From a virus (Duplodnaviria; Heunggongvirae; Uroviricota; Caudoviricetes), in IMG/VR virus record IMGVR_UViG_2548876853_000021: a stretch of 37,364 bases of DNA; one strand, 5' to 3'. Both the position numbers and the translations under genes were made by a program. The notes below the pieces were generated by a model. That model was given only the letters and a program-made list of their open reading frames with translations, did not search any database and was not told the origin of the DNA. Position 1 is the stretch's first letter; every line of letters begins with the position of its first letter. Below are positions 10,145-36,229 of this stretch, piece after piece.

Positions 10145-10717
10145 TCAGGGGGATTCATTGATCTTATTTGCCGGAAATTTTCTATAAATGGTAGAAACGC
10201 CTACATCAAAAATCAGTGCAATACGCTGTCTTGATTCTCCGGCCTCGAGTAAACGCCCAATCTGTGCCCACTGTTCGGTGGTCAACTTAGGACGGCGTCC
10301 ACCTACTCTGCCTTTGGCACGAGCTGCAGCCAGCCCTGCCCTGGTACGTTCAACTATCAGTTCGCGTTCCATTTCAGCCAGGGCACCCATGACATGAAAA
10401 AAGAAACGGCCCATTGGGGTACTGGTATCAATACTGTCAGTCAGGCTTCTGAAATTCACACCACGCTGGCGCAACTCTTCTATCAGCGTAACAAGATGCC
10501 GCATACTGCGCCCCAACCTGTCCAGCTTCCAGACAACCAGCGTGTCTCCTGCCGATAGTGTCCTGAGTAGTTTTTTCAGCCCCGGTCTGTCGGACTTAGT
10601 GCCACTGATTTTGTCCTCAAAAATCCGCTCACATCCCGCGCAGTTCAGTGCATTACGTTGCAAATCGGTGTTCTGGTCATTTGTTGACACGCGTACATAG
10701 CCAATAAGCATGATCAT
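10145..10717 (-). CDS. serine DNA invertase (Hin/Gin/Cin/Pin family)
   Basis: 190 aa; N-terminal catalytic motif YVRVSTNDQ, C-terminal HTH; adjacent to tail-fibre genes. Confidence 0.9.
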   Translation of the reverse strand: MIMLIGYVRVSTNDQNTDLQRNALNCAGCERIFEDKISGTKSDRPGLKKLLRTLSAGDTLVVWKLDRLGRSMRHLVTLIEELRQRGVNFRSLTDSIDTSTPMGRFFFHVMGALAEMERELIVERTRAGLAAARAKGRVGGRRPKLTTEQWAQIGRLLEAGESRQRIALIFDVGVSTIYRKFPANKINESP

Positions 10718-10766
10718 CCCCCTGAATAAAAACCGGAGATGATGCCAGTTAGCTGTTACCTCTGCA

Positions 10767-10794
10767 TTTTCTTAAACGTTGGTTTGGGAGAAGG
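10767..10794. promoter_or_regulatory. invertase recombination site (hix/gix-like), left
   Basis: 16-bp core ttggtttgggagaagg (10779-10794) is the exact reverse complement of 12661-12676; flanks resemble Hin-family half-sites. Confidence 0.6.
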
Positions 10795-11413
10795 TTCATT
10801 TGGGTTCAGAAATCTGGTTGCCTTCACAACGGCTGGAGTAACAAACTGGACTGTTCCTGAAGAGTTGCGCAAAGGAAGAAAATGTTACGTCAAAGTTATT
10901 GGTGGCGGTGCGTCAGGAGGGATAGGTTCAACAACCGCTTCAGCCGTTACATGTGGCGGAGGAGGTGGTGGGGGCGGAGTTGCTGAGGGGCTGGTAGATT
11001 TAACTGGTATAAACAGTGTTTCGATTACGGTTGGTGCCGGTGGTGCGCCTGTGTCTGGTATTTCTGTAAACGGTAAAAATGGTGGCTCGAGCAGTTTCGG
11101 GACTTACATGTCAGCTTCCGGAGGCTATAGCGGAGGCCAGCCTTCCGGAGGGTTAGGCGCAGTTGGTGTCGGGGGAACAATTAATACATCGCTTGGGCCA
11201 GGTTCTCCAGGTTCCATTGCTTCTGCCGCATCGGGAGCTGGTAATGGTGGTTCTGGTGGTGGCCCCGGAGGAGCAGGTTCATTCAGAGATACAGCTAACG
11301 GAAAAGCGGTATCAGCAGTTGGGCCTGGAGGTGGCGGTGCTGGATTATGTCCTAATTCATCAACGGGTCAGTCGGGTGCCGGAGCAGATGGCGCAGTTTA
11401 TATTTACTGGTGA
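10781..11413 (+). CDS. silent alternative tail-fibre C-terminal cassette (Gly-rich), expressed only after inversion as a fusion to the constant part of H
   Basis: open frame continuous through the recombination site; shares GLGEGS at the junction with H; the ATG at 10739 lies outside the invertible segment. Confidence 0.6.
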   Translation, partial: GLGEGSFGFRNLVAFTTAGVTNWTVPEELRKGRKCYVKVIGGGASGGIGSTTASAVTCGGGGGGGGVAEGLVDLTGINSVSITVGAGGAPVSGISVNGKNGGSSSFGTYMSASGGYSGGQPSGGLGAVGVGGTINTSLGPGSPGSIASAASGAGNGGSGGGPGGAGSFRDTANGKAVSAVGPGGGGAGLCPNSSTGQSGAGADGAVYIYW

Positions 11414-11420
11414 GGTTCAT

Positions 11421-11591
11421 ATGTGGGCAAGAATTGAAGAAAATAAAGTAGAAGAGATAACGGAAATTAATCCTGAAGGAAGATTCCATCCATCATTAAT
11501 ATGGAAAGAATGCCCTGCTGACACACAGCAGGGGGATTTATATATTGATGGTGAGTTTATTGTGCAGTCTCCGGCAGTTCAGGCCAGATAA
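11421..11591 (+). CDS. short alternative tail-fibre assembly protein (tfa'), possibly truncated
   Basis: 56-aa ORF with GAGG Shine-Dalgarno directly after the alternative fibre cassette; its 3' end overlaps the 3' end of G on the other strand. Confidence 0.4.
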   Translation: MWARIEENKVEEITEINPEGRFHPSLIWKECPADTQQGDLYIDGEFIVQSPAVQAR

Positions 11592-12165
11592 CATCCGGCG
11601 CGGTGCTGGTATCTGTTGCCGTCACCGCGTCAATGTAATCCAACACCGTGTTGAGTCGGCTGGTTTCTGACTGCGTCAGATTCCGTCCGGCCTGTAATTT
11701 CAGCTGAATCAGACTGATGGAAGCCATTGCAGCATCAATCAGTGACTGACGCTGTGCTTCTGCCGCGTCTACTGCGGCGCTATGCTGTGCCTCAGTATCG
11801 GTCACCCATTTCTCACCATCCCATTTATCGTATGGAGATAAAGGGGCGATAGTGGTTGTATTTTCAGGGTAATCACCCGGAGCTTTGATTTCTTTTGATT
11901 CTCCTGTTTCTGTGCTAAAGACGATTTCACCACGATGGTCTGGCACATATTCCCATGAGTTAAAATCTGCAGAACGGCAGATTGCATACCCAGTTTTGTA
12001 TGAGCCAGGAGCATCTAAACAGGAACATGCCGGAATGCCGACACCCACAGCAAGATATTCAGTTGATGTGAAAATATATTCCCGTGTTTCACCATCATAG
12101 TTATAAACCGTAATATTTCCTGCCTGGGTGGCGATAAATTCGTTATTTAATACAGCGTAATCCAT
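11557..12165 (-). CDS. G: tail fibre assembly protein G
   Basis: 202 aa; conserved Tfa C-terminus (...IWPELPE...); start overlaps the H stop. Confidence 0.85.
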   Translation of the reverse strand: MDYAVLNNEFIATQAGNITVYNYDGETREYIFTSTEYLAVGVGIPACSCLDAPGSYKTGYAICRSADFNSWEYVPDHRGEIVFSTETGESKEIKAPGDYPENTTTIAPLSPYDKWDGEKWVTDTEAQHSAAVDAAEAQRQSLIDAAMASISLIQLKLQAGRNLTQSETSRLNTVLDYIDAVTATDTSTAPDVIWPELPETAQ

Positions 12166-13724
12166 TATGCAGCCCTCACAATATACGCAAATGCCAGGTT
12201 ACGTGGTCTGGTTTCTTTAATTAAAGAGGAGGCATCAGGTGAACTCACTGATTCAGCACCATTTCTTCCACCAGTGGTATAAGTAAAAACTCGCTCACTG
12301 TTAGACCAGTAATCCACACCAACTGTTCTTGCTGATGAAAAAATGGTTTCATCAGATATAACCTGTTCTATTCCATACGGGATATTAGTAACTGACCCCA
12401 CTTTTGTAGGTATTCCATGATTATGAGAAATTACTGCATGCTCTTGATTCGTTAATAAAGTACGACCGCTATCCACTCCACGCCCGTCATCCCAGCCACG
12501 AATAAACTCACCACGTAAATCAGGCAATTTATTTGTCGGGTAAGCCTTTGCCAGTTCCGGGTATGCTTCAGCAGAAAAAGCCGCACCGTTGCATTTCAGC
12601 CAACCTGATGGCGGTGTGGCTGAAGGCCATGGAACAGGCACACCAACAGGTAATGCAGAGCCTTCTCCCAAACCAAGGTATGTGAGAAGACCAGCTACAT
12701 CCTTTCCACTCAAATTGGTAAGCGTATTGTCCAGCGGTTGTTTACCTGCCAGCGCATTAAGCATTGTCGTGGCAAAGTTCGGATCATTCCCCAGTGCCGC
12801 CGCCAGTTCGTTCAGTGTATCCAGTGCAGCAGGTGCAGAACCCACCATTCCTGCAATCGCCGATTTCACAAAAGCCGTAGTGGCAATCTGTGTATTGTTG
12901 ACCGACTGCGCCGCCGTGGGGGCTGTTGGCGTTCCGGTGAGTGCCGGACTCGACAACGGTGCTTTTAGTGCCAGCGCATTGTTAATGGTGGTACTGAAAT
13001 TCGGATCATTGTTAATGGCTGCGGCTATTTCTTTCAGCGTGTCCAGCGTGGCTGGCGCACCATTAATAAGGGCCGTCAGTGCCGCCTGTACAAACGCAGT
13101 GGTCGCAACCTGCGTGGTATTATTCCCCGCCGCTGGCGTTGGCGCTTTGGGGGTTCCGGTAAATGTCGGGCTGGCTTTTGGCGCGTACTGTGAATGCGGG
13201 TCCGGTGCGGCAAGATGTTTTGCCATCTGATCATCCGCGTACACCTTCAGCTCCAGTGCCTTGTCATCCACATACTTGCGGGTTGCCAGCACTACAGCAG
13301 GGTCGATTTTCAGGGTGATATTGTCCGTGCTGCTGGTAATCAGCACCATGCGCACGGTCTGAGTGCGCCCGCTACCTTCAGCCAGTTGCGGCTTATAGCT
13401 TTCCGGGCAGTTGCCCACGGCAATCAATGCCCCGGACTCATCAAACAAGCCCACTTCACGTATCCACCAACCGCCCTCGTTTTCAGGGATCACCTGTTCG
13501 GCAATAATCTGGCTGCTGTTCTGCGGATCGATATAAAGCATATTCAGCGCAGCCCGGCGTTTCTCATTTACCAGTGCCGTCTGCTTTGCGTCCGGCGTTG
13601 GCAATACTCCACTGCCATCGCCCACCGCCATATGGGTAATTTTTAGCGGCACACCGAGCGCGGCGGCGCTGGCAAGTTTCGCCGCGCCAATATCCGTCAG
13701 CAGGGTATAAAATTTTGTGCTCAT
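12165..13724 (-). CDS. H: tail fibre protein H
   Basis: 519 aa; two tandem ~53-aa fibre repeats (aa ~204-330); the variable C-terminal ~165 aa lie inside the invertible segment. Confidence 0.9.
   Translation of the reverse strand: MSTKFYTLLTDIGAAKLASAAALGVPLKITHMAVGDGSGVLPTPDAKQTALVNEKRRAALNMLYIDPQNSSQIIAEQVIPENEGGWWIREVGLFDESGALIAVGNCPESYKPQLAEGSGRTQTVRMVLITSSTDNITLKIDPAVVLATRKYVDDKALELKVYADDQMAKHLAAPDPHSQYAPKASPTFTGTPKAPTPAAGNNTTQVATTAFVQAALTALINGAPATLDTLKEIAAAINNDPNFSTTINNALALKAPLSSPALTGTPTAPTAAQSVNNTQIATTAFVKSAIAGMVGSAPAALDTLNELAAALGNDPNFATTMLNALAGKQPLDNTLTNLSGKDVAGLLTYLGLGEGSALPVGVPVPWPSATPPSGWLKCNGAAFSAEAYPELAKAYPTNKLPDLRGEFIRGWDDGRGVDSGRTLLTNQEHAVISHNHGIPTKVGSVTNIPYGIEQVISDETIFSSARTVGVDYWSNSERVFTYTTGGRNGAESVSSPDASSLIKETRPRNLAFAYIVRAA
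12661..12688. promoter_or_regulatory. invertase recombination site (hix/gix-like), right, inside gene H
   Basis: reverse complement of the 16-bp core at 10779-10794; falls at H codons 350-355 (LGLGEG). Confidence 0.6.
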
Positions 13725-15573: not shown

Positions 15574-16148
15574 ACCGGGCCTCCGGTTGTATCGCCGCCT
15601 TTCAGGACGCCAGTATGCTGATGCGCATCAACCACGATCCCGTTAGAACTCATCGCTCCGCCGCCCTGGGTAACGCCACCATTGATCACCACTTCGCTGT
15701 TAATGCGCGTGCGGTCAGCCTCCAGTACAAACTCACTGGTTTTCATGGTGATGTTGTCAGCAGCCTCAATGACCATTGATTTGATGCCCCTGACATACCA
15801 GCGCCCGGTGGCGGGTTCGTATTCAAACCAGCCACCGTCAGGATGTTCTGTCACGCAGGCGTCCGCCGACGTCGACGGTGGTGCGAACTGATTCGAATAG
15901 ACAGCGGGCAGCGCAAAGGCGGTTTCCAGATTGCCGCCCAGACTCAGCAGCACCACCTGCTCACCTTCCGATGGTCGCCACCATGTACGGGCATTCCCGG
16001 CACGCAGCGTCAGCCAGCTGATCCAGTTGGTTTCAAGCTCGCCCGTTTTCACCCGGCAAAGCCAGTTTTCCCTGTCCACTTCGGTGACTACCCCTGTGCG
16101 GATCAGGTTGGTGATAAGGCGCATGATTTCGGTTAATTGTGCGTTCAT
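15570..16148 (-). CDS. V: baseplate spike/assembly protein V
   Basis: 192 aa; P2 gpV position. Confidence 0.85.
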   Translation of the reverse strand: MNAQLTEIMRLITNLIRTGVVTEVDRENWLCRVKTGELETNWISWLTLRAGNARTWWRPSEGEQVVLLSLGGNLETAFALPAVYSNQFAPPSTSADACVTEHPDGGWFEYEPATGRWYVRGIKSMVIEAADNITMKTSEFVLEADRTRINSEVVINGGVTQGGGAMSSNGIVVDAHQHTGVLKGGDTTGGPV

Positions 16149-16194
16149 AGGGAAAGGTTGCCATCAGGGGAAGAAAGGCGGCAGTGCTGCAACT

Positions 16195-16212
16195 TGTATC
16201 AGTGCTGATACA
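16195..16212 (-). promoter_or_regulatory. putative Ogr-dependent late promoter element upstream of V (TGT-N12-ACA)
   Basis: TGTatcagtgctgatACA with 8-bp perfect inverted arms (ttgtatca / tgatacaa) in the 68-bp S-V intergenic region. Confidence 0.45.
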
Positions 16213-16216
16213 AAGA

Positions 16217-16663
16217 TCACCCCGCCAGCCATTGCAGAATCATGTCGCGGGTCATTGCCTCAACATCATCATTTACACCCAGAAGGCGACGCTCTGCGTA
16301 ACGCACCTCCGGTCCCTTACGACTGACGCGATCTCGCAGGCCGTAATGGTGAACGCGGGCAATGCGCTGCACCTTGCCTTCAAACTGCACGCTGGCAGAG
16401 TCGGTGCTGGCGGCAGTTTTCAGGTATTTTGTGGTGCGCAGCTTTGCAAACATCTGACGTTTGATACGGCCTTTTTTACTGCGTGCTGTTACCCGTCGCG
16501 GTTCATAGCTGCTGCCGTCAGGGTTGCGCTGCATCCTGATATTCTGCTGCTGTGTCCGGCGAAGTTCCTGCGCCAGCTGGCGCATCATGCGGCTTCTCGA
16601 GGCTGGTTCCAGATTCGCCAGCAAGGCACTCAGCCAGTCGTCCACCTTCTGCAGTTCAGCCAC
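16217..16663 (-). CDS. S: tail completion protein S
   Basis: 148 aa; P2 gpS size and position. Confidence 0.8.
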   Translation of the reverse strand: MAELQKVDDWLSALLANLEPASRSRMMRQLAQELRRTQQQNIRMQRNPDGSSYEPRRVTARSKKGRIKRQMFAKLRTTKYLKTAASTDSASVQFEGKVQRIARVHHYGLRDRVSRKGPEVRYAERRLLGVNDDVEAMTRDMILQWLAG

Positions 16664-24991: not shown

Positions 24992-26416
24992 TTACTTACG
25001 TGTTTCAACTATATTCAGCCCCTTATAAAGGCTTTGATGGATATATACAGAACCAGTATTTGGCAACATTAAATCAGCATCTTCACATCGGAATCTAGCC
25101 GTACCGGAATTGCCCAACCGGACACCAATCACAGAAGCATTAAATAGAGTTTTCATCAATTCACGAGAAGTATAGCGCTTACAAAGGTCAGGCGCTTTCT
25201 CTTCAATCTTACTGATGAATTCTTCTGTAGAATTATATCTATGCTGCGTCTGACGTAAAGATTCCAATAGCTCACCAAAATGAGGGTAGAGCCTTTTGTA
25301 TTCTTGTTTTAAGTCCTCAACTTTCCAAGCGCTGTACCGTTCTTCAGCTATTCTAATTATATCCTTTTTTATTTCAGAAGCATTAGCATCACAGCGTTTT
25401 TGGCATTCTTGCAAAAACTGAATAACTTCTCTTGGGCGCAAAAATGTGCGCTTCACCAAATAGTTAAACGGTGAAATACTCCCTCTCATTTCACCTTCCT
25501 CAAAAATATCATCTATAGTTATATTTTCCGGCAATCTGGCGTTCACCATATCTTTCAACAACTCTGGTGTCCAGATTATTTCTTCTTCAATTGCCCGGTG
25601 TTTATCTTTATCATCAAATTCCAGCCCTTGATAAATATCAGAGCGTAAAAATGTTACAATATGAATACCTTTGGCTCTAGTATCAGAATAACTATCATTA
25701 ATATCTTTTGTTGCCTTCAACAAGCCAATCAAAAGGCTTTTGGCATCATCCGATCCATCCCAAGAATCATCTAATCGATCAGTGGCAATTAGCACCCCAA
25801 TATCAGTACAAATTTCTTTAAGCTCGTCAAGGATGATTTTTATTATTTGAGGTGTCAATGGTGCTTGCGAAGCATCCCTATTAAACCCCACAGCATATCC
25901 GAAAGCCTCAAAATTGAATGAACTTAATCCCGAGAGTAACTTCCTTGCAGTTCCCAAAGTAGTTGGCGATATACCACCATAGTTATCAAAAACAAATTTT
26001 TTAATTCTAGCAAGGGCCTCCTGAGGTCTTTTCTCTGAAAATTGCCTACCTGACCTAATAATTTCTGCCGCAGCCTCAACAGCTATTGCAAATTTCCAAG
26101 CATTACAATGTGCCTGTTCGGGTAACAACCCTTGCTCTTGATATTGTTTTAATGCTCCCCAAGCATACTGGTCTGGGGTCATGACATTTACGATAACGTC
26201 CTGCCCATATTTTGCTCTTACCAACCTTGGGAGTTGGGTAAAGATGGATGATTTCCCAGCCCCCTTTCTTCCAAGAAAATGGGCACTATAGAAACTCAGA
26301 GCTTGCTCAACTTGAGGAGTATTGATGAAATAATCAGCCAACCTTCTATCAGCTTCAGCATCGACAGTACCAAAGTTGAGTCCCTTAACTGTAAGGCCTA
26401 ACGCATCTAACCGCAC
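24992..26416 (-). CDS. P-loop NTPase of unassigned family (accessory gene between portal and cos)
   Basis: 474 aa; Walker A GRKGAGKS (aa 49-56); Walker B-like IIKIILDE followed by DRLDD; GTG start with AAGGA Shine-Dalgarno; lower GC than flanking structural genes. Confidence 0.75.
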   Translation of the reverse strand: MRLDALGLTVKGLNFGTVDAEADRRLADYFINTPQVEQALSFYSAHFLGRKGAGKSSIFTQLPRLVRAKYGQDVIVNVMTPDQYAWGALKQYQEQGLLPEQAHCNAWKFAIAVEAAAEIIRSGRQFSEKRPQEALARIKKFVFDNYGGISPTTLGTARKLLSGLSSFNFEAFGYAVGFNRDASQAPLTPQIIKIILDELKEICTDIGVLIATDRLDDSWDGSDDAKSLLIGLLKATKDINDSYSDTRAKGIHIVTFLRSDIYQGLEFDDKDKHRAIEEEIIWTPELLKDMVNARLPENITIDDIFEEGEMRGSISPFNYLVKRTFLRPREVIQFLQECQKRCDANASEIKKDIIRIAEERYSAWKVEDLKQEYKRLYPHFGELLESLRQTQHRYNSTEEFISKIEEKAPDLCKRYTSRELMKTLFNASVIGVRLGNSGTARFRCEDADLMLPNTGSVYIHQSLYKGLNIVETRK

Positions 26417-26654: not shown

Positions 26655-26995
26655 AAATCGGTCAAACCTTGAAACCAGTCATAAATATGAGCCAGCTTAA
26701 TACACACTAAATAGCTGCGTCTAATACTGCTACACCTGCCGTTTACTGACATGTGGCATGTCGCGTAAGGACAACATACTGTAGGCCAGATACAGCAGGA
26801 TCAGGCGAAGAAAACGGCCCCACGCCTTACCCAGCAAGGGCCAAGGGCTAACCGAAAGTGGAGCATTATTCCGCGCAGTTATTTAGTGTCAGCTCTTTTG
26901 AGCTAAAATCAAGTTTCAACATGAGGGTCTGTGCAGGCTTTCTCATCCCGCTAATTTATACAGCACACCTATATGGCTATGAGTTTGTCATGCCC

Positions 26996-27027
26996 GCTAA
27001 TCCTGTTAGGATTAGCCTTGTTTTTTT
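26996..27027 (+). terminator. strong hairpin plus U-tract immediately upstream of the lipoprotein gene
   Basis: gctaatcct-gtt-aggattagc then cttgTTTTTTT; ends 18 nt before the ATG at 27045. Confidence 0.5.
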
Positions 27028-27044
27028 ACGATTGGGATAGGGAT

Positions 27045-27851
27045 ATGAAGAAATTAACTGGCGTAATTGCTTTTGCTCTGCTGCTTACTGCTTGTGACAA
27101 ACCGAAGATCGATGCATCAAGCGATCAGTCGATGAAAGAGTCCATTCAAAAAGTAAGAGAGTCCTTACCTGCAGATAAAAAAGCTCAGTTTGATGATGCA
27201 GTTAAAGTCGTTGCCTTTAGCCAAATCAACATGAGAGAGCTAATGCAGGCTGGAACGTCTTCTGGGGACGTCTACGAAACAAAAATTAAGTCAGCGTTGG
27301 AAGGTAAAACTGGTGATGAGGTTATAAATTACGCACAAACTATTCGCCTTGAGCGTGAGAAGAGAGAGAAAGAACAGGCTCTGCAAGAAATAAAAGAACT
27401 GGAAGCCAAACAAACCTCTGCAACACAGGCTGCGGAAAAAATGAAAGCCTTCAAGGTCGAACGTTCCCGTTTTTATTTCCAGAAAGAGGATTACGGCAAT
27501 GATCAGCCAATTCTGGATATTAGCGTTGAAAACGGAACAGACAAAGCGGTTGCCAGAGTATTCTTCAAAGGAGTTATTGCCAGCCCAGGAAGAAGCGTCC
27601 CTTGGTTCTCTGACGTCTTCAACTATAAAATTTCTGGAGGTCTGGAACCAGGTGAGAAAGCCAACTGGAAATTAGCCCCTAATAGATACTCTGATTGGGG
27701 AAAACTTAAAGTTCCGGCTGATGCTATATTTACCGTCACAGTCATTGGCCTTGAAGACGCAGATGGGAAATCGATCTATGGTGACGCCGAGTTTTCAGAA
27801 CGCGATGCTGACAGACTGAATCAACTTAGAGATAAGTACCTTTCTAAATAA
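27045..27851 (+). CDS. lipoprotein, function unknown (accessory)
   Basis: 268 aa from MKKLTGVIAFALLLTAC (lipobox LLTAC); charged coiled-coil middle region; about 40% GC. Confidence 0.7.
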   Translation: MKKLTGVIAFALLLTACDKPKIDASSDQSMKESIQKVRESLPADKKAQFDDAVKVVAFSQINMRELMQAGTSSGDVYETKIKSALEGKTGDEVINYAQTIRLEREKREKEQALQEIKELEAKQTSATQAAEKMKAFKVERSRFYFQKEDYGNDQPILDISVENGTDKAVARVFFKGVIASPGRSVPWFSDVFNYKISGGLEPGEKANWKLAPNRYSDWGKLKVPADAIFTVTVIGLEDADGKSIYGDAEFSERDADRLNQLRDKYLSK

Positions 27852-28668: not shown

Positions 28669-31083
28669 TTAATACAGGTTCCGCCACTTATCATCTTCCT
28701 GCAAACGCTGGTTCCGATAGAAGATACGCAGGCCTGCTCCTGACGGAATACTGCCACCGCAAAGGAGCAAATCGACCTCTTTCTCGCTGCCATCAAATCC
28801 TCTGGACTTCAGTTCATAGACGAGCTGCTGACGCTGATACTCTGTAATTCGCTGTTTGTAGTCTTTACGCCGTTTCGGTTTAACCAGGCGCAATCTTGCT
28901 GCCAGTTCCCGGCGCTCTTTTTTGCTCATACTGTGCAGGTAATCGTGCAATTCCTTGTCATCCATGCAGGTAATGTCCGTTCTGGTATCCCCATCTGCTG
29001 ATTCATCTTTCTCATGTTGGTTCAAATTTTCAGCAAGGGGACAGTTATTGCCACGAGTCCAAGGGGCGCAAGCGCCCTGGTCGGCTGCCGCCTCCTGAAC
29101 GTCAACGGCTTTACGAACCATTTTCCACTTCACTGCATGAGTGCAGATCTTGCCCTCTGCAATGGGTGACCAGATGCCATAAATACGAATACCGTGATCG
29201 CCATAGGCGGTCGGCTCTTCGTTGATTTCATAAGCGGTTCTGATGAGGTGATATTTACGGGGAACCAGTACGCCGCCCTGCTTCATGATGTAGGAGGCAA
29301 AGCAACCAGCATCAGCTGCAGCCAGAATGGCATCAAGGCGCGGGTTATCCAGTACCGGCGCACCTGCTTTTTTGTCACCCTGTTGCCTTGCCGCCTGACC
29401 AGCCAACAATCGCAGTTCACGGTAAGCCTGACGCCCCGGAATGCCAAAGAAGCGGAATTGCTGAACACGATGCAGAGACGCCCAGGCATTAACGTATTCA
29501 GCGTTATCACGCAGAGATTTCCCCGTTTCCTTGCTGATCTCGCCAGCCAGACCACGCCCGTCAATGTTCTTACTGATGTATTTCGCGATATAGCTTGTTG
29601 GCGTACCTTTGCGCGGGTTAATCAACTCAGACTTAAAGCGCGGCCCAGTGTTATTGCCCAGCTCCTCGCGGTCTTCACGGATGGCAAACTTACGCAGTAA
29701 TGCAGTGATGGCGCGGCGGTCTTTTTTGCGCATAAAACACAACAGGTGCCAGTGAACTGTACCGTCATGATGCGGCTCAGCCACCCGCACGCCATACCAG
29801 CGCAATCCGGCTTTGTGCATCGCCTTACGAAATGCAGCAAACATGCCGACCAGATAATCACTACTTTGTCTTACCGTCGCATTTGTCCAGGTTGGGTTGG
29901 ACCTGCCGTTATTTAGCGTGGAATGGAAACGTGACGGACAGGTGATGGTGTAGAAAACGGCGCAGTCACCGCGCATTTCCGCGATAAGCTCCAGACCTTT
30001 AACACAGGCCATCATCTCATTGCGGCGATGCGCAGGGTTGCTGCTGCTGGCGTTTACCACATCCTCCATGTCCAGCGTGTCGCCGTCTTCGTTCACCAGT
30101 TCATGAGAACGGAAAAACTCCAGCGACTTACGGCGCTGCTCACGTTTATGCATCACGGCTTCATAGCTGACATAAGGAGATGCTTTTTTGCTGACCAGGC
30201 AGACAGCGCGCAACTGCTCTTCCCGCCATTCGCAACGCATCTTCCATAATTTCCGATACCACCAGTCGGCGCACAACATACGCGCCAGCGAACCCGGAAT
30301 GAGTTCATAGGGCACGGGTTTACGGCGGTTTCTTTTCCAGCGGAGTTGCTCAAACGCAGGTGGGATGACATCCAGACGCAGGGTTTCCGCTGCCACCTTT
30401 TCCCATGTCTTGCGGATTTCTTCTGGCTTAACATCATCGGTGGCGTACAAATCACCACAAGCGGCATCAAGACACATGCTCATATGCGCAGCGACAAGAG
30501 TAGACAGGCGTTTCACCTGATCCTGACTCATTTCAGGCAGGATCAGCAGGCCGTCCAGCCCTTCATGGCTTGCCATAAAGCGAAAAGAAGTGGATAGCTG
30601 ACTGTCGCGTACATGCTCCAGTCGTTCCAGACATGGCTTAATCGTCTCACGCAAATAGCGGGAATAAGCCTTTGGCCTGCCCAGGCTGCTGAAGTATTCA
30701 ATACGTTGCATCAGCGGCTTGCTGATATGGGAAGACTGGGCGTTTACGTCCGCCAGAATGACCATGTCTGGATTAAAACGCTGCTGCTCATGCGCCAGCT
30801 TTGCCCGGCTAATGAGCTTATCCTGCTCCATTTCGCGCTGGACAGGATCACGGGATTCATTAAAGAAATAACGCTCCCAGACCTGCTCACTCAGTGCCTC
30901 GCGGCGCAGTTGTTCCTGTTCGTTATCGGCAGCGTACAGAGTGATCAGGTTTGAAAGTGCAGACTCCGGCGCAACTTCCGCCGGATCCAGATAAGGGTTA
31001 ATGGCCTTTTTCGGGCCGTTCCATGAAAATGATGCAGCGGCCTCGTTAAAGCCGCTAGAGTTGCTCATATCGTCATGACTCAT
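28669..31083 (-). CDS. A: replication initiation protein A (rolling-circle initiator)
   Basis: 804 aa; P2/186 gpA size and position; ATGA overlap with the upstream dam stop. Confidence 0.9.
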
Positions 31084-33988: not shown

Positions 33989-34113
33989 GATGCAACATTC
34001 CTCTTTTAGCAATGATTAATCAGGATGAATACTGATCGTTTGTATTATGTGAACACTGCAAACATACGATCACATCATGAAATCGTCAAGGTAAAAGTTC
34101 ACTTGGAGTGACC
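33989..34113. promoter_or_regulatory. apl-cI intergenic switch region with candidate operator dyad
   Basis: 125-bp AT-rich region between divergent genes; inverted repeat tgatcgtttgt (34033-34043) / acatacgatca (34062-34072). Confidence 0.5.
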
Positions 34114-34677
34114 ATGAATTTGGAAAAAGGCGGTCGTGGGGCCATAGAGCGCATGGTTGAAGCCTATGGTTTCAAGACAAGACAAGCTTTGTGTGATCAT
34201 TTGGGCATTTCTAAAAGCACCTTAGCCACGCGCTATATGCGTGATTCATTCCCGGCAGAATGGGTAATCCAATGTGCACTTGAAACCGGCACGTCGCTAG
34301 AGTGGCTAACTACTGGGCAAGGTTCAAAAGAAAGTTCACAAAAAGAAAACACAAAAGAGATCGAAAGGAAGATTTTATCAAGCGGAAAACTACTTCCTGA
34401 TGGTTACTACATTTTCGACAACAACTTTTTGCCTGAAAAACTAAAAAAACCTTTTGTTGTGATCGATGGCGCATCAGAGTTTATCTGTGATTCGGATTAT
34501 GAGGATGTACGTGATGGTAAGTGGATCGTTGATATTGATGGCGAGGTTGCTATCAGGAATCTGACAAGACTGCCGGGACGTCGTCTAAATGTCGATGGCG
34601 GCAGCAGTTCCTTTGAATGCAAAATAGATGAAATTGATATCATAGGAAAAATTAGAAGCGCGATCGTCAATTATTAA
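34114..34677 (+). CDS. cI: CI immunity repressor (186 CI type)
   Basis: 187 aa from ATG with GGAG Shine-Dalgarno; N-terminal HTH; size and position as 186 CI. Confidence 0.8.
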
Positions 34678-34886: not shown

Positions 34887-34897
34887 GGTTGCTTCAT

Positions 34898-36229
34898 ATG
34901 AATAATGATATGACTTTTGAAAACAGAGATGAGTATAATAGAAAAATCATTGCTGAAAAAATAATAAGCTTACTCGAGTCCCCCTTAAAAATATCCCCTA
35001 TTGTTATCGATGGGGACTGGGGTACCGGTAAAACCGAATTTTCAAAAAAATTAGCGGCATTGATTGAAAAAAATGAATCTGGGCATAAAGTAGTATATAT
35101 TGATGCATTTACTGAAGATCATAATGATGCTCCCATACTTACTATAATGGCTGCAATAGTTGCATTATATCCAGAGAGTGAAAAGAAGGAATTAATATCA
35201 AAGGCATTACCAGCATTGAGATTTGGACTTAAAACTGTACTCAAAGCTGGCGCTGGGTGGATTTTAAAACAAAATGCAGATGATATTGCGGATGAATTCG
35301 AAGATGCTATTAAAGATGCGGCTAACTCAGCTATAGATGGTACTGTAGAAGCACTGCTTGATGATCATATTGAAGCAAAGAAACATTTGCTTGCTCTCAA
35401 GGAAGTACTTGCTGAACTAACTAGCGAAAATAAAATAACAATTATCATTGACGAACTTGACCGTTGTAAACCAAGCTTTGCCATCTCTATCATCGAAAAT
35501 ATAAAACATGTTTTTGACACTGAAAATCTTAACTTCTTGTTAGTTGCTAACATCTCACAATTGAAAGCATCAATAAATCATATTTACGGTGCAGGTGTTG
35601 ACTCAGAAAGATATCTTGATAAATTTATAAAATTCACTTACAGCCTGCCAGTGACTTTCACTGAAAACAATTACGATAAAATTTTGGCTTCGAACTCTCA
35701 TTTTAGAATGCTATGTAACGAGTCTGAAAGACTAAAAGAAATTGGAGAAAGTAGTATTCATATAGTTCAAAAATTTATCGAACTAAAAGGCTTGTCGCTA
35801 CGGGAAGTTGAAACCTTATCAAGATATCTAGAAATTTATCAAATTTTATCTCAAAATGAAATCAGCAATAAATTTATACCAGGCTATTGCTGTTATCGAA
35901 CCCTTGCAGTAATTCTTTATTCGTTTGGTCGTGAACTGGCCCTTAACTACGTAGAAGATAAAATAGATGCACAATTAATAATCAATTTCTTCGGTGTTAA
36001 TAGACTCCCATATCAGACAGATCAATATAACATCAACATCTACTATTATGCATTATTTGGTATAACTTATAAATATATGCCAGAAGGTTCTCCTTTACTT
36101 CCTTCTGAAAACGATGAAAAAAACAGATGGGCTGAAATAAGTGATTATCATATTTTAAAAGGAAATGCAGGTGTAGAAGACCCTGTTAGAATATTCAAAA
36201 ACACCTTAAAAGTTTTCTTGCTCCAATGA
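34898..36229 (+). CDS. KAP-family P-loop NTPase
   Basis: 443 aa; Walker A GDWGTGKT and Walker B IIIDELDRC typical of KAP NTPases; Shine-Dalgarno overlaps the stop of the upstream small ORF; AT-rich. Confidence 0.8.
   Translation: MNNDMTFENRDEYNRKIIAEKIISLLESPLKISPIVIDGDWGTGKTEFSKKLAALIEKNESGHKVVYIDAFTEDHNDAPILTIMAAIVALYPESEKKELISKALPALRFGLKTVLKAGAGWILKQNADDIADEFEDAIKDAANSAIDGTVEALLDDHIEAKKHLLALKEVLAELTSENKITIIIDELDRCKPSFAISIIENIKHVFDTENLNFLLVANISQLKASINHIYGAGVDSERYLDKFIKFTYSLPVTFTENNYDKILASNSHFRMLCNESERLKEIGESSIHIVQKFIELKGLSLREVETLSRYLEIYQILSQNEISNKFIPGYCCYRTLAVILYSFGRELALNYVEDKIDAQLIINFFGVNRLPYQTDQYNINIYYYALFGITYKYMPEGSPLLPSENDEKNRWAEISDYHILKGNAGVEDPVRIFKNTLKVFLLQ

Follow-up and report, generated by a model that had tools for sequence, protein, structure and literature searches.

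Does the tail-fibre locus of a P2-like prophage contain a DNA inversion switch, and which two fibres would such a switch exchange? The question is raised by IMG/VR record IMGVR_UViG_2548876853_000021, a stretch of 37,364 nucleotides (nt), here called the window, which is a P2-like (Peduoviridae) prophage of Escherichia coli inserted beside ybjL. Its tail-fibre gene H (12165-13724, minus strand, 519 amino acids, aa) shares a short inverted repeat with a long silent frame, and a serine invertase gene lies next to the silent copy. An initial annotation, made from the letters of the window, interpreted the DNA between the two repeats as an invertible segment of ~1.9 kb which changes the tip of the fibre. 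The evidence set out below makes it very likely that the locus is a Pin-type site-specific inversion switch of the Din family, placed in the tail-fibre gene of this E. coli prophage.

Recombination sites, fibre fusion and natural inversion

The 37-kb window contains the 16-mer TTGGTTTGGGAGAAGG exactly twice, once on the plus strand (10779-10794) and once on the minus strand (12661-12676), the same exact pair reported in the initial annotation. Further copies were absent from the window at up to two mismatches, and two matches were obtained in 0/100 dinucleotide-preserving shuffles. According to a repeat finder, the pair extends imperfectly to 31 nt with 81% complementarity (10767-10797 and 12658-12688, the arms lying 1860 nt apart).

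Both copies belong to longer recombination sites, which were written as 12 + 2 + 12 bases, the right one as the reverse complement of 12663-12688. The left, invertase-proximal site (10767-10792, plus strand) reads TTTTCTTAAACG-TT-GGTTTGGGAGAA, and the right site, which lies within H (12663-12688, minus strand), reads TTCTCACATACC-TT-GGTTTGGGAGAA; their inner half-sites are identical. The two align ungapped and in register with cixL and cixR of P1 (crossover positions taken from the annotation of the P1 record), with gixL and gixR of Mu, and with the two e14 sites which flank the stfP/tfaP/tfaE/stfE block next to pinE in K-12. Counted by hand from the aligned sites, the left site is identical to the pin-proximal e14 site at 25/26 positions and the right, distal site to the distal e14 site at 22/26. 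A loose resemblance to hix and gix half-sites had been proposed; the relationship is borne out by the alignment with cix and gix, while the word "loosely" is too weak for a match of 25/26. The comparison with hix, like the one with the hin enhancer, is indirect and passes through Gin, Cin, Pin and the published work on Hin (PMC3798978). The TT core had been named correctly: in the left site it occupies 10779-10780, in register with the cix, gix and e14 sites.

It follows from the 26-bp alignment that the 16-mer noticed at first comprises the core dinucleotide, the inner half-site and two more coding bases. Crossover would take place at 10779-10780 and 12675-12676, and the DNA predicted to be inverted, 10781-12674, measures 1894 bp, in line with the ~1.9 kb of the initial annotation. 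At up to three mismatches only two matches to the site pattern were found in the 37 kb and no third one, and the switch is therefore a two-state switch. A shufflon-like or multiple-inversion system, of the kind represented by Min of p15B, the R64 shufflon and a three-repeat P2-like locus of enteropathogenic E. coli (EPEC), was ruled out by the presence of only two sites.

The reading frames agree with this arrangement. The right copy of the repeat lies at the LGLGEG codons of H, which reads ...LTY-L-G-L-G-E-G-S at residues 350-356, and the left copy encodes GLGEGS in frame with the open frame that ends at 11413, both as first described. When 10781-12674 is flipped in silico, the first 350 residues of H are unchanged and are followed by ...LTYL-GLGEGS-FGFRNLVAFTTAGV... 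up to the stop. The product, H', has 560 aa and joins the constant N-terminal part of H (12675-13724, minus strand, 350 aa; PF12571 Phage_tail_fib at residues 1-150, E 1.5e-64) to a glycine-rich tip of 210 aa (10781-11413, plus strand), with a gene of 56 codons next to it (11421-11591, plus strand). The variable C-terminal part of H in the present orientation, a collar-domain tip of 169 aa (12165-12674, minus strand; PF07484 Collar at residues 361-408), then points the other way, together with its tail-fibre assembly protein Tfa (11557-12165, minus strand, 202 aa; PF02413 E 2e-32, PHROG 105 E 2e-96, tfaE in relatives). The replacement of the C-terminal ~165 aa of H by a ~210-aa tip, as originally envisaged, is correct for the new tip, which is 210 aa and in frame; the replaced part is 169 aa long, and its first 6 aa are common to the alternative. 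Fibre genes of exactly 1683 nt (560 aa) are annotated in relatives with the flipped arrangement.

The silent frame had been described as having no start codon of its own. This does not hold to the letter, as ATG ATG at 10739-10744 opens a 224-aa open reading frame (ORF; 10739-11413, plus strand), but the sole GGAG abuts the first ATG and a usable ribosome-binding site is missing. Judged by its sequence, the silent tip is not credibly translated from a start of its own.

This bears on the view that the repeat is a mere coding motif, a GLGEG linker retained by two head-to-head tip paralogues without any role in recombination. In line with such a view, both arms are protein-coding across the inner half-site, and GLGEGS is conserved as a peptide. 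However, the identity is 16/16 at the nucleotide level, the repeat continues imperfectly into the non-coding outer half beside the invertase, where it matches the outer halves of the e14, cix and gix sites, the silent tip is without a credible translation start, and natural inversion occurs exactly at the motif. A conserved linker is thus a highly improbable explanation.

Natural inversion was sought in 5426 complete E. coli genomes, which were searched with the native and the in-silico flipped arrangement, a match of at least 80% in one piece being required. The cassette pair of the window is in the native orientation in 4 genomes and flipped in 6, the combination of collar tip and glycine-rich tip being carried by about 10 of the 5426. 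Both orientations exist in complete genomes, and relatives with other second cassettes are likewise found in both. In BLAST comparisons of flipped relatives with the window, the breakpoints fall at 10776-10798 and 12658-12676, and the collar-tip segment is reverse-complemented in the relatives L007 and L008.

The clearest case is offered by the near-clonal sister isolates SWYHX138.33gt (L006) and SWYHX138.261ft (L007), which come from one Thoroughbred horse sampling series in Hong Kong and match the window at ~95% identity. When 9753 bp of the two were compared, the first 3787 nt and the last 4132 nt were identical, and the 1834 nt in the middle were exact reverse complements with 0 mismatches, the sole difference in this stretch. 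The constant part of H lies outside the inverted segment in both. In this pair the inner half-sites differ at one base (GGTTTGAGAGAA vs GGTTTGGGAGAA), and the G/A polymorphism serves as a natural marker for the crossover point: the polymorphic base moves with the segment, which places the crossover within the 8 bp TTGGTTTG that contain the core. Moreover, as the segment was inverted despite the non-identical half-sites, a base change is tolerated at that position. The G-to-A form GGTTTGAGAGAA, which leaves the two sites of a locus non-identical, is found at 3768-3793 in L006, at 5616-5641 in L007 and also at 3768-3793 in L004, the locus of E. coli strain 2452.

Differences in orientation could also stem from RecA-dependent recombination between the repeats, since any inverted repeat can recombine in principle, or from assemblers, which choose one orientation from mixed reads; in neither case would an invertase be needed. 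Such an origin has very little to commend it. The perfect repeat is just 16 bp long, far below efficient RecA substrates, and the crossover lies in 8 bp with the core of sites that align to cix and gix. An assembler's choice would itself imply a mixed, inverting population. In Mu, P1 and e14, which have the same architecture, inversion is recA-independent and invertase-dependent, which again speaks against this explanation. The preferred reading, site-specific inversion by the invertase, also has precedents close by: phase variation by inversion has been shown by sequencing and PCR in EPEC P2-like prophages, and inversion of e14 was shown by the same means in K-12 cultures (PMC4272514).

Invertase, probable enhancer and the state of the switch

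The initial annotation placed a Hin-family serine invertase immediately outside the left site. The gene found there (10145-10711, minus strand) encodes a Pin-like serine DNA invertase of 188 aa, and its counterparts in relatives are annotated as genes of 567 nt; an alternative in-frame ATG at 10717 (ORF 10145-10717, minus strand, 190 aa) would add 2 aa. Depending on the start codon, 49-55 bp separate the beginning of the gene from the edge of the left site, and 62-68 bp separate it from the core. The protein contains PF00239 (residues 5-137, E 2.3e-53) and PF02796 (residues 140-183, E 1.5e-15), matches PHROG 125 "DNA invertase" with E 7e-101, and is 85% identical to e14 Pin, 77% to Cin of P1 and 74.5% to Gin of Mu. 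Among solved structures, those of Gin (3uj3 and 4m6f) are its best matches, with E about 1e-92. The catalytic serine is Ser9 in Gin and Ser10 in Hin; in the window Ser9 is intact and aligns with Gin position 9 (Ala in 3uj3, Ser in 4m6f). Several residues are conserved only in Fis-dependent invertases and were reported as Fis or enhancer contacts, namely Hin Gln151, Arg154 and Leu155 in the DNA-binding domain and the basic residues 47, 48 and 51 in helix B (McLean et al., PMC3798978). Their equivalents are all present (Q150, R153, L154; K46, K47, R50), with an offset of -1 from Hin that was fixed by the 1hcr alignment. By these sequence criteria the enzyme is an intact member of the Din family (Hin, Gin, Cin, Pin).

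A Fis-bound enhancer had been suspected within the 5' end of the invertase gene. The P1 record carries an annotated enhancer of Cin-mediated inversion at cin nt 19-90, and the invertase genes of the window, pin, cin and gin align ungapped over their 5' ends. The homologous stretch of the window (10622-10693, gene nt 19-90) is identical to pin at 63/72 positions, to cin at 56/72 and to gin at 52/72, and an enhancer in the 5' end of the gene is probable. Within it, two 15-mers match the degenerate Fis pattern KNNYRNNWNNYRNNM of the older literature at 7/7 and at the same gene positions in all four genes. The proximal Fis-like core covers gene nt 22/23-36/37 (10675-10690) in two registers one base apart (GTGTCAACAAATGAC and TGTCAACAAATGACC), and the distal one, GCGCGGGATGTGAGC, with its G...C boundaries, covers gene nt 71-85 (10627-10641). 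They are 48-49 bp apart centre to centre, with a total span of 63-64 bp, and between the proximal centre and the core of the left site there are 97.5 bp, vs 96.5 bp in Mu. The Hin enhancer is a 65-bp element with a Fis site at each end, about 100 bp from one recombination site (PMC3798978), and the spacing and span observed here are consistent with it. Of the degenerate pattern, a further source supports only the general features, namely boundaries of G/C, a centre rich in A/T and, at +/-3-4, Y-R steps (PMC4784862).

On the basis of what is known of the family, invertase dimers would bind the two inverted 26-bp sites and, together with an enhancer that is bound by Fis and situated within the first ~90 bp of the invertase gene, would form a synapse, in which cutting at the TT core followed by rotation would invert 10781-12674. 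In the present orientation, the late operon would read H with its 350-aa constant part and 169-aa collar-type tip, and then the canonical Tfa chaperone. In the inverted orientation, the constant part would run into the 210-aa glycine-rich tip and be followed by the 56-aa gene, the collar tip and its Tfa being silent. Having two orientations, a lysogen population would release virions with two receptor-binding tips, a form of bet-hedging on host range, as the alternative tips presumably change the range of bacteria attacked.

Several observations weigh against an active, Fis-dependent switch in this prophage. The window is a single sequence in one orientation, and a sigma-70-like promoter for the invertase was not found between the left site and the start of the gene. 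The match to the Fis pattern is not significant alone, being expected by chance at ~1 per 128 positions, and the enhancer stretch is a coding region which is conserved for protein reasons too; for these reasons the enhancer claim rests on homology to the annotated enhancer of P1. Furthermore, such switches are not always kept. In the relative L001 the invertase is frameshifted, and in E. coli LR-45 (NZ_AP027532.1, L003) the N-terminus of the invertase, the left site and most of the glycine-rich tip have been deleted, so that the orientation of the collar tip is locked. This is the exception among the relatives examined, all others having the repeats. Of the three findings which the initial annotation named as fatal to its reading, none was made: the segment occurs in both orientations, the catalytic serine is intact, and the repeats are missing only where the left site of L003 was deleted.

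The decayed relatives, the missing promoter-like site and the one orientation of the window are also what might be expected of a fossil switch, in which the remnants of an active ancestor persist while the segment is fixed, the invertase being silent or the prophage defective. This is an unlikely account of the window, in which the invertase ORF is full-length and has its catalytic and Fis-contact residues, both sites are intact with identical inner halves, and both cassettes are open and in frame. Relatives ~95% identical to the window were inverted very recently, and the prophage itself looks complete from the integrase to the ogr end (ogr itself being seen only in the relative L003). The copy in the window is more probably a Pin-type switch that may still invert.

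Three further observations concern this region and its decayed relatives. A weak hairpin with a T-run lies between the left site and the start of the invertase gene (10731-10750, minus strand) and could stop read-through from the late operon into that gene; since a terminator-like scan returned 2 candidates vs 1.1 expected, with the hairpin at 10750-10731 not above the shuffle expectation, it was not used as evidence. L001 (CP019275.1, 3146-3704), the 37.4-kb circular "plasmid" p13P477T-2, is a P2-like genome deposited as a circular plasmid, with the same switch and different cassettes. L003 (2509-6150) is a decayed copy of the prophage, 99.7% identical and at the same ybjL site, in which the sheath and gpI genes are truncated too.

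The glycine-rich tip and its 56-aa partner

The silent tip matches PF21722 Gly_rich_2 with 44.9 bits vs a cut-off of 24.3. It has about 100 homologues of roughly 110-370 aa, nearly all of them with PF21722, and the longer ones are consistent with the same tip on shorter fibre stems, such as those of the e14 type. Although no sequence match was found among PDB chains, an AlphaFold model built from 48 sequences (pLDDT 92.7, pTM 0.90) was matched by Foldseek to the fibre protein gp24 of cyanophage Pam3 (7ypx_A, E 7.6e-7, TMq 0.65), to tail-tip chains of mycobacteriophage Bxb1 (E 8e-7) and, more distantly, to the glycine-rich domain of ALK. The tip is therefore predicted from the model to have a TNF-like plus glycine-rich fold. 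In Pam3 this module is the proposed receptor-binding end of the fibre and resembles gp38 of phage S16 (PMC9608196).

The gene which follows the tip is preceded by a good Shine-Dalgarno sequence, GGTGAGG, 6 nt upstream of its ATG. Its 56-aa product has no match in Pfam, NCBIfam or PHROGs, yet 18 residues are invariant across 8 homologues, which go down to 53% identity in that alignment. A homologue is located directly 3' of the Gly_rich_2 fibre gene in Budvicia, which has a P2-like tail at this locus, and in Leminorella, which has a Mu-like tail, and in both loci an invertase and a full-length Tfa gene are absent. The gene directly after the Gly_rich_2 tip encodes 54-56 aa, as at 11421-11591 (plus strand) of the window, 6001-6171 of L013 and 6001-6165 of L015. 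A PF02413 remnant of 24-30 aa follows the 54-56-aa gene in Budvicia, as if a full Tfa had been truncated. That the 56-aa protein is itself a homologue of Tfa (PF02413 Caudo_TAP) was rejected at the sequence level, where hhalign against the Tfa alignment returned a probability of 3.7%.

The AlphaFold2 model of the 56-aa protein (pLDDT 88.7) was obtained from a shallow alignment of 8 sequences, and its sole meaningful PDB match is the Pam3 chaperone gp25 (7ypx_a; TMq 0.73, rmsd 2.7 Å, 54 columns), a match which is statistically weak (E 0.1) and for which the aligned gp25 residues are absent from the search output. In gp25, which has 162 aa, the fibre is bound, at its glycine-rich and TNF-like domains, by a beta-sandwich of residues 1-55, and residues 64-162 make up a trimerising helical domain (PMC9608196). 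The 54 columns of the match equal the size of the N-terminal beta-sandwich, and the models of the tip and of its partner match two chains of one solved complex, 7YPX. Together with the gene order, the models make it probable that the 56-aa protein serves the glycine-rich tip as a minimal chaperone or as an accessory, working at most like the N-terminal, fibre-binding domain of a chaperone.

A more specific possibility, which we put forward tentatively and with somewhat less than even confidence, is that the silent cassette is a self-sufficient two-gene module made of a receptor-binding tip of the Pam3/gp38 type and a stand-alone fibre-binding "tentacle" domain without the helical trimerisation domain, which is thought to drive fibre assembly. 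If true, the switch would toggle two mechanistically different routes of fibre-tip folding as well as two receptors, and the 56-aa mini-protein would be either a dedicated fibre chaperone smaller than any other known or an accessory of the tip that has been retained.

Genomic setting and comparison with known switches

The invertase and the cassettes are placed between H/G and the sheath gene FI. The closest phage records are Escherichia phage 500465-1 (genus Wadgaonvirus), several Klebsiella phages and phage Cartapus, and the annotated ones among them list a DNA invertase at the same position. A survey of P2-like phages describes the region between H/G and the sheath gene as a hotspot which often contains a DNA invertase and inverted neighbour genes (bioRxiv 10.1101/2024.10.15.618418). 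On the bacterial side, the flank of the window is 99.3% identical to E. coli LR-45, and the relative with the closest collinearity is the prophage in E. coli strain 2452 (98.2% over the tail, baseplate and sheath genes).

Other positions of the prophage contain cargo genes. A KAP-family P-loop NTPase of 446 aa (34889-36229, plus strand) is located between the CI repressor gene (34108-34677) and the integrase gene (36312 to the end of the window); given its match to the PADLOC candidate defence family PDC-S20 (E 1e-171), the prophage probably carries it as anti-phage cargo, at the third P2 hotspot. Two more cargo genes lie between the head-gene block and an 804-aa ORF (28669-31083), roughly at the position of the P2 old/tin hotspot: one encodes a 474-aa protein (24992-26416, minus strand; PHROG 13260, unknown function) without a Pfam or PADLOC match, the other a 292-aa DUF6694 protein (26973-27851, plus strand; PHROG 7468, unknown function). 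In some relatives, a SIR2-family gene is inserted between the baseplate gene V and a virion morphogenesis gene (7190-8395 in L003, 9228-9801 in L008), at a hotspot of the Z/fun type, where the window has a short gap instead (about 16148-16217).

Among characterised systems, the nearest relative of the switch is the Pin/P-segment system of e14. The two have in common the inner half-site GGTTTGGGAGAA and the TT core, an invertase gene whose 5' end adjoins a site and whose transcription runs away from the segment, a site which splits a tail-fibre gene (stfP/stfE in e14), and convergent cassettes with Tfa genes. They differ in that e14, a lambdoid element, is decayed and retains a short remnant of a fibre, whereas the window carries the H gene of an apparently complete P2-like prophage; furthermore, neither fibre gene of e14 is annotated as glycine-rich and both its cassettes contain a full-length Tfa.

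The G segment of Mu with Gin and the C segment of P1 with Cin have, like the window, a constant fibre part, two tips that are each followed by a helper of their own, and 26-bp sites within the fibre gene; their enhancer lies in the invertase gene, where one is probable in the window too. In contrast to the window, the gix core of Mu is TC, cin of P1 ends at cixL while the invertase of the window starts beside its site, the segments measure 3-4.2 kb vs 1.9 kb, and canonical U/U' chaperones are present in both cassettes.

P2-like loci, namely those of the EPEC E2348/69 prophages, Escherichia phage 500465-1, Klebsiella phage KP12 and phage Cartapus, agree with the window in genomic position, invertase and, in the loci examined, sites, but most of them have another second cassette (gp53-like or other tips with a full Tfa), and one EPEC locus has three repeats and four variants where the window has two sites. 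Fels-2, with its invertase Fin, provides a further invertible tail-fibre locus of a P2-like prophage. With regard to Pam3 gp24/gp25, the difference is that gp25, like Tfa, has a C-terminal helical trimerisation domain, which is missing from the 56-aa partner.

The type of switch is already known and the window is one more example of it. Little new is learned about the mechanism, because the work on Mu, P1 and e14 made tail-fibre switches of the Din type textbook knowledge and experiments have already shown inversion in E. coli prophages of the P2 type. As far as the models allow, the glycine-rich tip with its 56-aa partner appears to be the sole part of the locus that is not routine.

The locus is also of value for annotation, as gene callers treat the silent tip inconsistently. 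In relatives, the Prokaryotic Genome Annotation Pipeline (PGAP) calls the silent frame a short separate tail-protein gene or a partial gene, or leaves it unannotated. In the locus of E. coli 2452 (L004, 5417-6724), H is called a pseudogene without its C-terminus and the glycine-rich frame has no annotation; the silent tip of L005 is listed as a partial "glycine-rich domain-containing protein".

For the lysogen, the orientation of the segment decides whether its virions carry a fibre of 519 or of 560 aa. On a broader scale, the glycine-rich tip travels together with its 56-aa partner, as an exchangeable module, between the P2-like, Mu-like and, probably, e14-like tails of enterobacteria, and a module of this kind could help host-range engineering in P2-type phages and tailocins.

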